Sequence record: PQ511146.1
Strand: one strand, 5' to 3'
Length of the DNA: 64,000 nucleotides
From: Escherichia phage NHEP1
Made by a program: the position numbers and the translations under genes. Shown one piece after another: positions 41,420 to 50,137 of the stretch. The notes under the pieces were generated by a model, which saw only the letters and a program-made list of their open reading frames with translations, made no database searches and was not told the DNA's origin. Within the stretch, counting starts at the first letter, position 1. Each line of letters opens with the position of its first letter.

Positions 41420-41659
41420 ATGTATAAGTCATTTTCAATTTACTCAAGACAGGCAAAACACTACACAGAGATTCTGATCACTCAGAAAAAATCTGTGGAA
41501 GGTGAGTGGGAATATCATCATAAAATGTTGCGTCCAGACTGGGTTTTTGATAGGCTTATTGCTATGATCCCTCTTGGAGAAGTATACCCTCTGACAGGTC
41601 ATAGGGATGCTTGGGATTTAATTGACTATATAGATTCATTTAAGGAGCCTAGATTATGA
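41420..41659 (+). CDS. hypothetical protein
   Basis: Trimmed to ATG 41420 after GAGGGGG. Confidence 0.4.
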   Translation: MYKSFSIYSRQAKHYTEILITQKKSVEGEWEYHHKMLRPDWVFDRLIAMIPLGEVYPLTGHRDAWDLIDYIDSFKEPRL

Positions 41660-42054
41660 AGATTGAGATTACTGAAGAAGGTAAGAAAGTCTCTGGTAAC
41701 TATGCAACAGTTATCCGTGATGTAATGTTCGAAGTCACTAAGATTGGCACATCCAAGGTTGGTCAAACGGTGAGTGTGCAAGGTAATATCACCTCAGGAG
41801 AGAAGATATTCATCGTGATAAAAGGCCAGGATCCTGTAGAAGGGACAGTTGGACGTGGTGGATACTTGTGTATCTCTGAAGAGCCTCGCATGCTAGTTGC
41901 TGATAACTCCACAGGTAAAAAGCGAGTATGTAACACGGACGAGGTGATGATTATCTATCCAGTCAACCCGGATGATCCGGCAACATGGATTGTGGGAAAT
42001 GAAATCTTCTCTTTAGAAGAGTTATCCTTCCCAGCTCCGCGATCTGTTCAGTAA
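41656..42054 (+). CDS. hypothetical protein (MKIEIT N-terminus)
   Basis: 132-aa ORF; N-terminus MKIEITEEG resembles those of 47021 (HPF-like) and 49171. Confidence 0.45.
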   Translation: MKIEITEEGKKVSGNYATVIRDVMFEVTKIGTSKVGQTVSVQGNITSGEKIFIVIKGQDPVEGTVGRGGYLCISEEPRMLVADNSTGKKRVCNTDEVMIIYPVNPDDPATWIVGNEIFSLEELSFPAPRSVQ

Positions 42055-42093
42055 TAATTTATCTTACCAGGGACGGTAAAAGCAGGAGGTAGC

Positions 42094-42327
42094 ATGAAAG
42101 TTAAATTTCTTACAGATTTAGGGTACCCTTCCTTGGTTGACTGCGTTGGTAAAATTGTGGAAGCAAAACGGCTATCTGCAAACGATAATGTTGTCATGGT
42201 TAAGGGAAAAGATTTACTAGCTGCAGGTGCAGAGTCTGGCAGGATCTCTCCTGACTATACGTATTACCTGTCTTTAAGTAATCTACCAGAACGAGGCGGC
42301 AAAGGCCTTGAAGTTGTGGAGGAGTGA
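42094..42327 (+). CDS. small acidic protein, paralogue family member
   Basis: MKVKFL...VMVKGKDLLAAGA...EVVEE; shares N-terminal MK(V/I)K, central (V)KG.D(L/I)(I/L)AAGA and acidic C-terminus with 45749, 45966, 47838. Confidence 0.5.
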   Translation: MKVKFLTDLGYPSLVDCVGKIVEAKRLSANDNVVMVKGKDLLAAGAESGRISPDYTYYLSLSNLPERGGKGLEVVEE

Positions 42328-42869
42328 CAGGTATGCTTCTGATTAACTGGGAAGACCTCTATGGGGACAAAGACCCTGTTGCGTTTGTTGATCGTAGGTG
42401 GAGATACACTGAAGAACAACTGGCTGCAAAAAATTTAACTGCAAAACGCAGAAAGATCATCCAGTGCAAGTACAAATACGCACAGTTTGCTGCAAAAGTG
42501 TCTCCACAAATCGAGAGTTTTGTACTTAAATTGTATGACGAGTACCTCAAATTCAAATTGGATTTTGTACAGGTATACCGTGCACAGGTACGTCCAGATA
42601 CCAACATCTGTAGATGGAAGGTTGTTTGTGATGGTAAAGATTTGCCGCTCAGTTTGACAATTGAGTGGCGTTGGGGGTATCATGAGTGCGGTTTGTGTGA
42701 TATTTGGGATGTCATTGTAGATCCTGCTAAGTACCTGAACACAGAGGAGCTGGAATATATCAATAAGGTTATTCTAGATATGTTTTTCAGCTACACCCGT
42801 GAAAACTCTGAGAAAGAACGGGATAATTTTCTTGACACCCTCGGCAACCACCTGCAGTGTACAATTTAA
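42324..42869 (+). CDS. hypothetical protein
   Basis: 181-aa ORF. Confidence 0.45.
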   Translation: MTGMLLINWEDLYGDKDPVAFVDRRWRYTEEQLAAKNLTAKRRKIIQCKYKYAQFAAKVSPQIESFVLKLYDEYLKFKLDFVQVYRAQVRPDTNICRWKVVCDGKDLPLSLTIEWRWGYHECGLCDIWDVIVDPAKYLNTEELEYINKVILDMFFSYTRENSEKERDNFLDTLGNHLQCTI

Positions 42870-42887
42870 CCTACAAAGGAGGAGCCA

Positions 42888-43124
42888 ATGAGTATAGATG
42901 CTGTGCTGATAGGTTACCTGGTAGTAGCTGTTATAACAGCAGTAATCTTGGCAGGTATATGCATCGTGTCTACACGAAGGGTGAAGTTTGATGATTTTAT
43001 CACCATCATCACTGCTGCGCCCTTTTGGCCTGTTGTTATCTTCATCGTAATAATGTGCCTAGTTGATTACCACAAGAATACCCGTAAGGAGAAAAAGGAG
43101 AGTAGGGATGGATACCGCACCTAA
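42888..43124 (+). CDS. small membrane protein
   Basis: 78 aa; two hydrophobic segments (LIGYLVVAVITAVILAGICIV; PFWPVVIFIVIMCLV). Confidence 0.45.
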   Translation: MSIDAVLIGYLVVAVITAVILAGICIVSTRRVKFDDFITIITAAPFWPVVIFIVIMCLVDYHKNTRKEKKESRDGYRT

Positions 43125-43239
43125 AACTGTTTATACTGTTCTTAAAGAGATTGCGTTCTACGCAGATCTTAGCCGGGCACCTTTATGGGAAAAGAATATG
43201 TATTTAAAATGGTGCGTGAAATTAGAGGGGGCCTTCTAA
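43108..43239 (+). CDS. 43-aa micro-ORF (unannotated)
   Basis: Own translation MDTAPKTVYTVLKEIAFYADLSRAPLWEKNMYLKWCVKLEGAF; AAGGAG RBS; overlaps end of 42888-43124. Confidence 0.3.
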   Translation: MDTAPKTVYTVLKEIAFYADLSRAPLWEKNMYLKWCVKLEGAF

Positions 43240-43358
43240 TGTTTCAAGCCATGTTTATTGAAATGCTCTCTGGGGTATTACTGCTGGTAGCCATTTTGGG
43301 TGGCGCGGCACTGATGTATAATTATCTTGAAAAAGGAGACAGTAATGACAAAAAATAA
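43239..43358 (+). CDS. 39-aa hydrophobic micro-protein (unannotated)
   Basis: Own translation MFQAMFIEMLSGVLLLVAILGGAALMYNYLEKGDSNDKK; GAGGGGG RBS; TAATG overlap. Confidence 0.35.
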   Translation: MFQAMFIEMLSGVLLLVAILGGAALMYNYLEKGDSNDKK

Positions 43359-48438: not shown

Positions 48439-48833
48439 TGGTAAGTCTATACCGTGTTGAGTATAGCTCGGATACTGTATACAATGTAAGAAGCAAAGAT
48501 CGCAGTGACAGAGTGCAAGAAATGTATGTTCTTGCAGACAGTCCGTTATCTGCAGCGTTCAAGGCAGGAGCTCTTGCATCTCGTTGGAAATTTGAGGGTG
48601 GATCTTTCTATGAAGAAACCCTTGAAGATTCTGTTGTTATTTCTTCTGTAGAGGTTTCAACCGACTACGAAGGGAAAAAGTTCGTAATGCGGCACCCACA
48701 CAGCAACATTGCGTACTACTGGGATGTTCTGAACAATGAGTGGACCCCTGATCTTCAGAAGGCCACTGTTCTAACCCCATTCCTGGCAGATAAGTTTCCA
48801 CCAGAAGGTAATTTATCTGCACTGTTTCAGTAA
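48438..48833 (+). CDS. hypothetical protein, paralogue of 46233-46631
   Basis: Shared HP..S...YW...N.WTP block. Confidence 0.45.
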   Translation: MVSLYRVEYSSDTVYNVRSKDRSDRVQEMYVLADSPLSAAFKAGALASRWKFEGGSFYEETLEDSVVISSVEVSTDYEGKKFVMRHPHSNIAYYWDVLNNEWTPDLQKATVLTPFLADKFPPEGNLSALFQ

Positions 48834-48851
48834 TTTTATGCCACACAGGTG

Positions 48852-48880
48852 TTGACAACACCAACCCTGTGTGCAATAAT
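48852..48880 (+). promoter_or_regulatory. sigma70-like promoter with -35 embedded in a 15-bp perfect palindrome
   Basis: TTGACA (48852-48857) N17 AATAAT with TG extension; palindrome GGTGTTGACAACACC (48848-48862) flanked by CACAGG/CCTGTG. Confidence 0.5.
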
Positions 48881-48909
48881 ACCTTCATCTTAACAAGATA
48901 GGAGACCGA

Positions 48910-49170
48910 TTGATGAAGATTAAATTGAAAAACCTTGAAACGGCAGAGATTCAGGAAGGTATTGATTTCCGTTCTAAAGATGGAGACATCCTGGAGGCGA
49001 ATGTCCCGACATATAAGTTGATTAAAGGTTTTGGCAACGTTCCGGAGGAGGATATTACAGACATTCTTATGATGTTGATCCTTGACGGGACTGTGTTTGT
49101 AGGTGAAGGTGAGAACGCTATTGCAATCCCGAGCCATTTTTATGAAGTAGTTGACGAAGAGGTGCTGTAA
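48910..49170 (+). CDS. small acidic protein, paralogue family (divergent)
   Basis: MMKIKLK... and C-terminal FYEVVDEEVL. Confidence 0.45.
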   Translation: MMKIKLKNLETAEIQEGIDFRSKDGDILEANVPTYKLIKGFGNVPEEDITDILMMLILDGTVFVGEGENAIAIPSHFYEVVDEEVL

Positions 49171-49521
49171 ATGAAAGTAGAGATCACAGGTTTTGATATG
49201 AATGCGGTTCCGGAAGATATTTTAGCTAAACTCCCGGAAGGTTTTGGTAACGGTGTTGTGGTTGATGCTGTTCCTCCTACCAAAGACATCCTGCTGCAGT
49301 ATGGTGTGGCAGAGGAAGATGTTGATAAAGTTCTTACAATGATGGCAATCGACCGTGTTGTCGTTGTTAAAGGTCTTGAAGGTTTTGATAACGATCCTCT
49401 GATTATTCGTGGTGATGACTATCATGTCATCGACAACGAAGGCCAAGAGTTCTACGAACCTTCTGCTGAAGATGTTCTTAACTTACTACTGGAAGCAGGC
49501 ACCGAAGAGGAGGAAGAATAA
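49171..49521 (+). CDS. small acidic protein, paralogue family (divergent)
   Basis: MKVEITGF..., VVVKGLEGFD, poly-Glu C-terminus EEEEE. Confidence 0.45.
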   Translation: MKVEITGFDMNAVPEDILAKLPEGFGNGVVVDAVPPTKDILLQYGVAEEDVDKVLTMMAIDRVVVVKGLEGFDNDPLIIRGDDYHVIDNEGQEFYEPSAEDVLNLLLEAGTEEEEE

Positions 49522-49850
49522 TGAAAATTGATCCGTTACTGAAGGCTCGTGCAGAAAAAGCATACACTATCAAGCTGACCTCTCTGGTCCCTACTTGTCA
49601 TCCGGATGTAGGTTGGCCTGAAGGCTTGGTAGAGGGGACTGTAACAGCTGCATACCTTCCTAACATCAAATACCTCATGGAGATCTTGGAGATGGATGAG
49701 GAAACGGCAGAACAGTTCCAGTTAGACATGAAGCAAAGTGGGACTCTGGTTATTCACGGGTGGTATAATACTAAAGATGCAGAAGATCCCCTGGTAACTT
49801 CTAATCTGGCATATGAGATCTTAGGGCCTTTGAACTTGGGGGAAGACTAA
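49521..49850 (+). CDS. hypothetical small acidic protein
   Basis: 109-aa ORF in the same tandem array. Confidence 0.4.
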   Translation: MKIDPLLKARAEKAYTIKLTSLVPTCHPDVGWPEGLVEGTVTAAYLPNIKYLMEILEMDEETAEQFQLDMKQSGTLVIHGWYNTKDAEDPLVTSNLAYEILGPLNLGED

Positions 49851-50137
49851 TGAAAGATTTGGTTAAGATCAAGATTAAAGACACCAATGGAGAACTCAGC
49901 CATTTTGGAATTAACGATGGTGACGAGCTGATCGCCCACCTGCCTACCAAGGAAGTTGTAAGCAAAGCGGTTGCCGGAGAAGAAGATGCAATGCAGGCTG
50001 CAGGTGTGGATGAAAGCTATGTAGCAATGTGTATGTGCCGAGATCAGGTTGTTCTGTATAAAGCGTATCGACCAAATGGAGCACCTGAGTGGCTTGTTTT
50101 CCGACCCGAAGGGTATGAAATTTTAGAGACGCTATGA
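49850..50137 (+). CDS. hypothetical small acidic protein
   Basis: 95-aa ORF, MKDLVKIKIK N-terminus. Confidence 0.4.
   Translation: MKDLVKIKIKDTNGELSHFGINDGDELIAHLPTKEVVSKAVAGEEDAMQAAGVDESYVAMCMCRDQVVLYKAYRPNGAPEWLVFRPEGYEILETL

Follow-up and report, generated by a model that had tools for sequence, protein, structure and literature searches.

What maintains a tandem array of small acidic proteins in a phage genome, packed around a homologue of the ribosome hibernation factor HPF? The question is raised by positions 41656-50137 of a 64,000-nucleotide stretch of Escherichia phage NHEP1 (PQ511146.1), called the window below; genes are named by their start coordinates. A first reading of the letters by a model (the original prediction) had seen here one diversifying family resembling a host-takeover or anti-defence arsenal. 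The region is best explained as an accessory block within a long early/middle transcription unit on the + strand of Vequintavirus, encoding three old paralogue families of small, non-enzymatic proteins; we give this reading as a whole an even chance of being right. The array products are probably accessory or counter-defence proteins specific to certain hosts. In the sister phage Bas54, the cassette corresponding to 47838-48106-48438 is a host-specific requirement on the Escherichia coli isolate CFE311, and the orthologue of 46233 is partially required.

Paralogy was analysed by all-versus-all BLASTP, by iterated hidden Markov model (HMM) searches against all 478 open reading frames (ORFs) of the window, and by hhalign on orthologue-enriched profiles. 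All-versus-all alignment and HMM building had been named as a check on the original prediction, and they revealed significant paralogy that falls into three families, A, B and C. Family A has five copies: 42094, 45752, 45966, 47838 and 48106. The first four had been grouped correctly from the outset (45752 under its listed start, 45749), as judged by BLASTP (E-values of 3e-7 to 1e-13 within the family), HMM and hhalign (probabilities of 81-99%); for 45966 against 45749 the values were 1e-13 and 99.2%. The fifth copy, 48106, gave an hhalign probability of 94% with 45966. The iterated HMM retrieved two distant members at E 4e-6 and 2e-4, and a wide profile that included distant relatives recovered 45752 (2e-28), 42094 (6e-26), 45966 (1e-23), 47838 (3e-17) and 48106 (3e-6), with the next-best ORF of the window at E 0.19. 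The consensus is MKVKLLNDGGYxGL..VGKVVEA...V.I.G.DLIAAGA..F...Y.F..G.EVEVVEE, and its conserved columns are mainly hydrophobic or glycine. The family has a median isoelectric point (pI) of 4.45 (range 4.06-6.04) and a median net charge of -6, with few basic residues. ORF 51285 was rejected as a member: it reached E 0.026 with the five-member profile but 1.4 bits with the wide one, a score attained by 15 of 500 shuffled sequences.

Word-indexed searches with family A returned Vequintavirus orthologues only. An exhaustive profile search of 1.84 billion representatives yielded 45 clusters at E ≤ 1e-3, mostly of 65-80-residue proteins with this consensus; some members are tandem fusions of two or three copies, and others are joined at the N-terminus to a different domain. 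The phages concerned are of quite different types and infect Proteus, Aeromonas, Pseudomonas, Pantoea, Morganella, Klebsiella, Iodobacter and Citrobacter. In Morganella prophages the gene lies between RecT/YqaJ and NinX/integrase; in E. coli prophages, found in 35 of 5426 complete genomes, it lies between the antiterminator and the holin. The subtype of 42094 (E 2.5e-36 to phrog_5009) is also carried by lambdoid prophages of E. coli and by phage MagusPhagus. Wherever it occurs in a phage or prophage, the gene is part of an array of small ORFs without annotation; the family behaves like a mobile accessory module.

Family B consists of 48913, 49171, 49521 and 49850, with 47476 as a weak fifth member. 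Of a second group proposed originally (47476, 48106, 48910 and 49171), 48910 (now 48913) and 49171 thus remain together, 48106 moves to family A, 47476 is attached weakly, and 49521 and 49850 are additions; the original list was otherwise substantially right. The pair 48913/49171 gave HMM E-values of 2.6e-66 and 1.9e-43, and hhalign probabilities were 95% for 49171 against 48910, 87% for 49521 against 49171, 30% for 49850 against 49171 and 25% for 47476 against 48910. With a profile that included divergent orthologues, 49521 scored 24.4 bits, 49850 16.0 and 47476 7.0-10.6; composition-preserving shuffles reached these scores in 0/500, 0/500 and 5/500 then 0/500 cases, respectively. The ribosome-binding site and start region of 47476 is 81% identical to that of 48913 over 27 nt. 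No sequence link between families A and B was found in either direction by hhalign or by comparing profile scores with shuffles. The family A profile gave 47476, 48913, 49171, 49521, 49850, 41656 and 51285 at most 3 bits, which is shuffle level apart from the N-terminal MKIK, and hhalign at most 10%. The single common family first proposed is supported at the level of a shared predicted fold but not at that of sequence.

Family C is the pair 46233/48438, which had been recognised as paralogous and is so by BLASTP (1e-7) and hhalign (97%); both match phrog_7379 (E 1.8e-73 and 4.2e-66, respectively). At a ratio of non-synonymous to synonymous substitution rates (dN/dS) of 0.03, it is the most conserved gene of the block, and among the 118 phage records with a 48438 gene the identity of its product never falls below 95%. 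Searches by tblastn with 48913, 47476 and 48438 found families B and C in Vequintavirus only. Two further candidates, 41656 and 46649, had no HMM or hhalign link to any family and are singletons.

The ORFs originally noted exist, all on the + strand. Each is preceded at 5-10 nt by a GGAG- or GAGG-type Shine-Dalgarno-like motif, and dN/dS is 0.03-0.17 against the approximately 91%-identical phage EmilHeitz; together these mark the array ORFs as real genes. A more divergent metagenomic relative, L005 (Logan SRR23924973), has 34-80% amino acid identity, keeps the gene order and retains a separate orthologue of almost every paralogue. Together with the low dN/dS, this shows that the paralogues arose long ago and are held under purifying selection, so the word 'diversifying' does not fit. 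Families A and C are combined in two A-A-C triplets, 45752/45966/46233 and 47838/48106/48438, with internal spacings of -11 to +12 nt, which suggests an old duplication of a three-gene cassette. In three metagenomic relatives (L002-L004, around 9998-10213), 45752 and 45966 are fused into one 70-aa chimeric gene, formed from the N-terminal two thirds of the former and the C-terminus of the latter by a 256-bp deletion. The crossover lies within GCCGCTGGTGC, the segment coding for the conserved LIAAGA motif, between its two copies. The deletion is the derived state, since the more divergent L005 retains both genes; the copy number of the array is still changing. DNA-level repeat searches detected the coding similarity of the paralogues and no common non-coding element.

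The original prediction recognised no known family. This is correct for Pfam, NCBIfam, PADLOC and PDB sequences, where searches with members and distant relatives returned nothing meaningful. At E ≤ 1, none of the Pfam families, eukaryote-type SH3 and KOW included, matched a protein of family A or B or a distant family A relative, and PADLOC gave no match at E ≤ 0.1 for ten family A and B proteins. A match of the motif 'LLxAGADP' to a designed ankyrin-like repeat among PDB sequences (E 0.07) was discarded as a short-motif coincidence. The statement fails for PHROGs, in which the proteins are already clustered and match profiles end to end (E 1e-31 to 1e-74): family A to phrog_5009 and phrog_13367, to which its distant relatives also match, family B to phrog_12359, 12155, 12457, 12794 and 11868, and family C to phrog_7379, all labelled 'unknown'. 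However, these are automatic clusters that split families A and B into single-gene entries and record no link of 47838 or 48106 to the family A core, nor among the family B members.

AlphaFold models of one member each of families A (45752) and B (48913) were confident. Family A is predicted to be a stand-alone SH3-like β-barrel with an N-terminal strand (MKVKLL), a GGYxGM loop and a GxDLIxAGA helix, and family B the same kind of barrel with a helical insert. Small-barrel domains used for comparison were SH3, Spt5/NusG KOW, PsaE, the PhnA C-terminal domain and OapB; the predicted structure has SH3-like small barrels as its neighbours, including Spt5 KOW, ribosomal L24, eL6 and the RNA-binding OapB.

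Functional data were available from HIDEN-SEQ, a published transposon-insertion sequencing (Tn-seq) screen of phage Bas54 (MaxBurger; Extended Data Table 8, bioRxiv 10.1101/2025.11.20.689424). The counterparts of the window genes are bas54_0146-0166, whose proteins are 90-99% identical. Of the 15 array genes mapped, 12 are classed as 'Non-essential' on K-12 and bas54_0151, 0152 and 0153 as 'Intermediate'; the screen also included CFE311, a uropathogenic clinical isolate (bioRxiv 10.1101/2025.11.20.689424). On that strain the log2 fold change (log2FC) was -7.16 for bas54_0152 (47838), -6.17 for bas54_0151 (48106) and -6.77 for bas54_0150 (48438), each with an adjusted p of 0: a mean of 71-142 reads fell to 0, and insertions in these genes were tolerated on K-12 (bioRxiv 10.1101/2025.11.20.689424). 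The second family C gene, bas54_0157 (46233), was about 4-fold down (log2FC -2.14, adjusted p 0), and bas54_0153 (47476) changed by -2.78, which was not significant (bioRxiv 10.1101/2025.11.20.689424). The orthologues of the HPF gene (bas54_0155) and of 42094 (bas54_0166) are non-essential on K-12 and unchanged on CFE311; bas54_0154 is non-essential in Bas54 (bioRxiv 10.1101/2025.11.20.689424). The preprint does not discuss the triplet or the other array genes. In its Extended Data Table 8, the sheet 'resampling_K-12_vs_CFE303' (Data S6) repeats the command line and the values of the CFE311 sheet (Data S7).

Knockouts in the same preprint showed that bas54_0063 and bas54_0140 (log2FC -5.48 for the latter on CFE311) are needed against DS-28, a predicted defence system of CFE311; DS-28 and Gao_Tmn are the only CFE311 systems that were cloned (bioRxiv 10.1101/2025.11.20.689424). 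The orthologue of bas54_0140 lies in the same co-directional block, 1.5 kb downstream of the array. It resembles the triplet genes in being small, dispensable on K-12 and strongly depleted on CFE311. It differs from them in that its defence system has been identified and a knockout tested, and it is absent from the HMM and hhalign match lists of families A, B and C, with no sequence relationship to them.

The mechanism that we consider most likely, though at no better than even confidence, is that the array proteins bind a strain-specific host factor, probably a component of immunity. As stoichiometric binders, they would each sequester or block one host or host-immunity component; they would thus be needed on certain wild strains but could be lost on a permissive laboratory host. 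We infer that 47838, 48106 and 48438 are each needed individually, that they would act by binding protein, and that what they counter would be an immunity system rather than another strain-specific barrier. The arsenal of the original prediction gains independent support for part of the array, from the loss of the 47838, 48106 and 48438 orthologues on CFE311, the depletion of that of 46233 and the anti-DS-28 gene in the block, but not for the other family A genes or any of family B.

Several observations weigh against this reading. Anti-defence genes are usually patchy among close relatives, yet the array is near-universal in its genus (80% or more of the region is covered in 114 of 121 records). 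Neither host revealed a phenotype for any family B gene or for three of the five family A genes, with no change on CFE311 (bioRxiv 10.1101/2025.11.20.689424), so that the function is extrapolated for most of the array. The knockouts in the preprint are those of bas54_0063 and bas54_0140 only, and the same table contains a run of genes, bas54_0123-0129, with uniform depletion (bioRxiv 10.1101/2025.11.20.689424). Since CFE311 also selects for different tail fibres (bioRxiv 10.1101/2025.11.20.689424), strain-specific requirements are not all a matter of immunity.

The depletion of bas54_0151 and bas54_0152 could, moreover, be a polar effect on the translationally coupled bas54_0150. The CFE311 factor would then be family C only (48438, and less so 46233), with families A and B doing something else. 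Both family C paralogues are depleted on CFE311, and the only depleted family A genes are those directly upstream of 48438; the start of 48438 overlaps the stop of 48106, and the gap between 47838 and 48106 is 4 nt. The partial depletion of bas54_0153, further upstream, the uniform run bas54_0123-0129, which suggests some polarity in the library, and the exceptional conservation of family C point the same way. However, insertions in bas54_0158 and 0159 were not depleted on CFE311 although the needed bas54_0157 lies directly downstream, and the authors argue that widespread polar effects are unlikely, as insertions upstream of essential genes are usually tolerated (bioRxiv 10.1101/2025.11.20.689424). 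The depletion of bas54_0151 and 0152 was also complete rather than partial, and we regard a family C-only requirement as unlikely. A role in remodelling conserved housekeeping machinery, for example translation together with the HPF homologue, or RNA polymerase, would instead make the array independent of strain-specific immunity. SH3-like and KOW-like barrels are common in ribosomal and transcription factors, and the structural neighbours named above would fit such a role. The array flanks the HPF homologue in all Vequintavirus genomes, the divergent L005 included, it is near-universal in the genus, and the 'Intermediate' class of bas54_0151-0153 means that they are not fully neutral on K-12. 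Against this, the HPF gene is dispensable on K-12 and shows no change on CFE311, many phages and prophages have family A with no HPF gene nearby, the acidity and scarcity of basic residues argue against direct RNA or DNA binding, and the strong phenotype is confined to one wild strain; such a role seems improbable to us.

We hold it to be just as improbable that the barrier in CFE311 lies outside immunity, for example in its capsule, in differences of envelope or metabolism, or in superinfection exclusion by a resident prophage, with the array as a general host-range toolkit. The same experiment did show strain-specific requirements for tail fibres and baseplate, and its authors suggest that conditionally essential genes may serve the exploitation of host-specific resources (bioRxiv 10.1101/2025.11.20.689424). 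But the array proteins are small, acidic and cytoplasmic-looking, with no signal peptide or membrane segment visible in their sequences, the array is far from the structural module, and a defence system could be assigned to two further genes that the screen showed as depleted. The original prediction had offered DNA mimics as an example, whose acidic surfaces would stand in for the DNA backbone and so tie up restriction enzymes or further defence proteins that bind DNA. This found no specific support, and we rate it as very improbable. Like Ocr, ArdA, Arn and UGI-type mimics, the array proteins are small, acidic and phage-encoded among accessory genes, here in an early/middle block; the pI of family A is consistently low, and its acidic positions 40, 54, 64, 66, 69 and 70 are conserved, four of the six in the last strand. 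However, the acidity is shared by unrelated ORFs nearby, searches found neither a resemblance to Ocr, ArdA or another solved mimic nor a PDB-chain or Pfam match, the predicted fold is a different one (an SH3-like barrel), and conservation follows the hydrophobic and glycine positions of a fold core, not a charge array. In the model, the conserved E-x-E-x-x-E of the last strand pairs with K-x-K of the first, which would be read more simply as structural. K-12 carries the restriction systems EcoKI, McrA, McrBC and Mrr; even so, of the 15 genes mapped, 12 are non-essential and three no more than intermediate on K-12 BW25113.

The features of the region are collected in Table 1. The original prediction had described the proteins as acidic. 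Their pI is indeed 4.05-5.4, with the exception of 46233 (pI 7.8), but unrelated small neighbours are equally acidic, so acidity is no distinguishing mark of the array genes.

Table 1. Genes and putative promoters in and near the array (positions in the window)
Position	Strand	Length (aa)	Assignment	Features	Bas54 orthologue
41656..42054	+	132	phrog_5748; in none of families A, B, C	Left edge	
42094..42327	+	77	Family A	Short form with C-terminal 'PERGGKGLEVVEE' extension	bas54_0166
45752..45976	+	74	Family A	Modelled member; triplet 1 gene 1; listed start 45749 corrected to ATG 45752	bas54_0159
45966..46220	+	84	Family A	14-residue insert between strands 2 and 3; overlaps upstream 45752 by 11 nt	bas54_0158
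46233..46631	+	132	Family C	Triplet 1 gene 3; from GTG 46233; 123-aa form in BASEL annotation	bas54_0157
46649..46939	+	96	phrog_12029; unrelated	Small acidic ORF	
46946..46974	+		Putative sigma-70-like promoter	TTGACA-17-TATCAT before HPF gene; consensus match 11/12	
47021..47338	+	105	HPF/YfiA-type ribosome hibernation factor homologue		bas54_0155
47349..47450	+	33 codons	Hydrophobic ORF	MGMIKKLVPNVEIACFEIMFAIAVVVNVLGYGY; between HPF gene and 47476	bas54_0154 (BASEL annotation)
47476..47745	+	89	Weak/possible family B		bas54_0153
47838..48101	+	87	Family A	Helical insert between strands 2 and 3; triplet 2 gene 1	bas54_0152
48106..48438	+	110	Family A	Long insert; triplet 2 gene 2	bas54_0151
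48438..48833	+	131	Family C	Triplet 2 gene 3	bas54_0150
48852..48880	+		Putative sigma-70-like promoter	TTGACA-17-AATAAT, extended -10; consensus match 11/12	
48913..49170	+	85	Family B	Modelled member; listed start 48910 corrected to ATG 48913	bas54_0149
49171..49521	+	116	Family B	Acidic C-terminal tail	bas54_0148
49521..49850	+	109	Family B		bas54_0147
49850..50137	+	95	Family B		bas54_0146
51620..51919	+			Outside array; 92% aa identity to orthologue	bas54_0140

Sigma-70-like promoters, some with palindromes, had also been noted. A scan by consensus matching gave 37 putative sites against 28.1 ± 5.7 expected. Seven of these match at 11 of 12 positions, all on the + strand, including the one before the HPF gene and the one before 48913; an inverted repeat (CACACAGG/CCTGTGTG) flanks or spans the -35 box of the latter. 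Right after the 46946 match, at 46982-47006, there is a GC-rich hairpin with a T-run (AAAGAGGG-TTGGTT-CCCTCTTCTTT), which could be the terminator of an upstream unit or a leader structure of the HPF transcript. In the rV5 genome paper, the genes of the block belong to a single long transcription unit, the promoters reported are of sigma-70 type only, and the paralogues go unmentioned (PMC3606486).

The HPF homologue of the original prediction was confirmed by a match of residues 3-88 of 47021 to Pfam Ribosomal_S30AE (PF02482; E 1.1e-12, 48.9 bits, gathering cut-off 23.7). Its product differs from HPF/YfiA in being short and phage-encoded with a lysine/glycine-rich tail, and it is unrelated to the surrounding paralogues. 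The neighbouring 47476 did not reach the gathering score of PF02482. Many GenBank records label 47476 orthologues 'sigma 54 modulation factor', and PQ014731 labels the 48913 orthologue 'non-specific endonuclease'. Neither label has Pfam, HMM or hhalign support; both look like errors propagated from the adjoining true HPF gene. A literature search gave nothing useful on these PHROG families, on hibernation in Vequintavirus or on phage-encoded HPF.

The region 41656-50137 is 98.7% identical to Escherichia phage vB_EcoM-ECP26. All 121 phage records that match it are rV5-like myophages of the genus Vequintavirus with genomes of about 137 kb. The BASEL annotation of EmilHeitz has anaerobic ribonucleotide reductase, PhoH, a ClpP-like protease and an adenine methyltransferase upstream of the block, whose small ORFs are all 'hypothetical' apart from one 'ribosome hibernation factor'. 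Phage MaxBurger (Bas54) lacks six genes matching window positions 43527-45455 (locus L015, 12436-12524); this sub-block is therefore variable within the genus, unlike the paralogue array. The cumulative GC skew turns at about 52 kb of the window, at the switch of coding strand, and in relatives the + strand block ends beside a gene-free stretch of about 2 kb (annotation gap 17185-19632 in L001). The intergenic gene-free region of Bas54 takes no transposon insertions (bioRxiv 10.1101/2025.11.20.689424) and may be a replication origin or another cis-acting element. The orthologue of ORF 50926-51231 (+ strand, 101 aa) is classed as 'Intermediate' in the Bas54 Tn-seq data (bioRxiv 10.1101/2025.11.20.689424). 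That ORF matches phrog_639 'transcriptional regulator' (E 4e-21) and, at 90% aa identity, is better conserved in the divergent L005 than any other gene of the block. Eighteen records carry the title 'Campylobacter phage' and give Campylobacter jejuni as host, but they are Vequintavirus genomes with about 92% identity to the array region; mislabelled hosts or contamination would probably account for them.

Therapy and biocontrol make use of Vequintaviruses, E. coli phages with a broad host range, and for the majority of their genes no function has been assigned. An unannotated block is now tied to defined paralogue families, to a confident predicted fold for two of them and to an unexploited genetic phenotype, and it poses a directly testable question: which CFE311 host factor do the array proteins counter? 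The array does not amount to a system of a new kind: it belongs, as an uncharacterised member, with the small accessory or counter-defence proteins of phages, and now offers an experimental handle. More tentatively, and with less than even confidence, we propose that family A and its family C partner in the A-A-C cassettes may form an unrecognised, widespread class of stand-alone SH3-like phage inhibitors, in which 47838-48106-48438 would neutralise a CFE311 immunity determinant and the other family A and B proteins would be a panel of barrels, each directed against a different host system. If true, such a panel would explain why ten copies are kept under purifying selection. Pfam has no entry for family A, although it is carried by unrelated phages as well as by Proteus, Morganella, Klebsiella and E. 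coli prophages, and a function found here would thus transfer widely.

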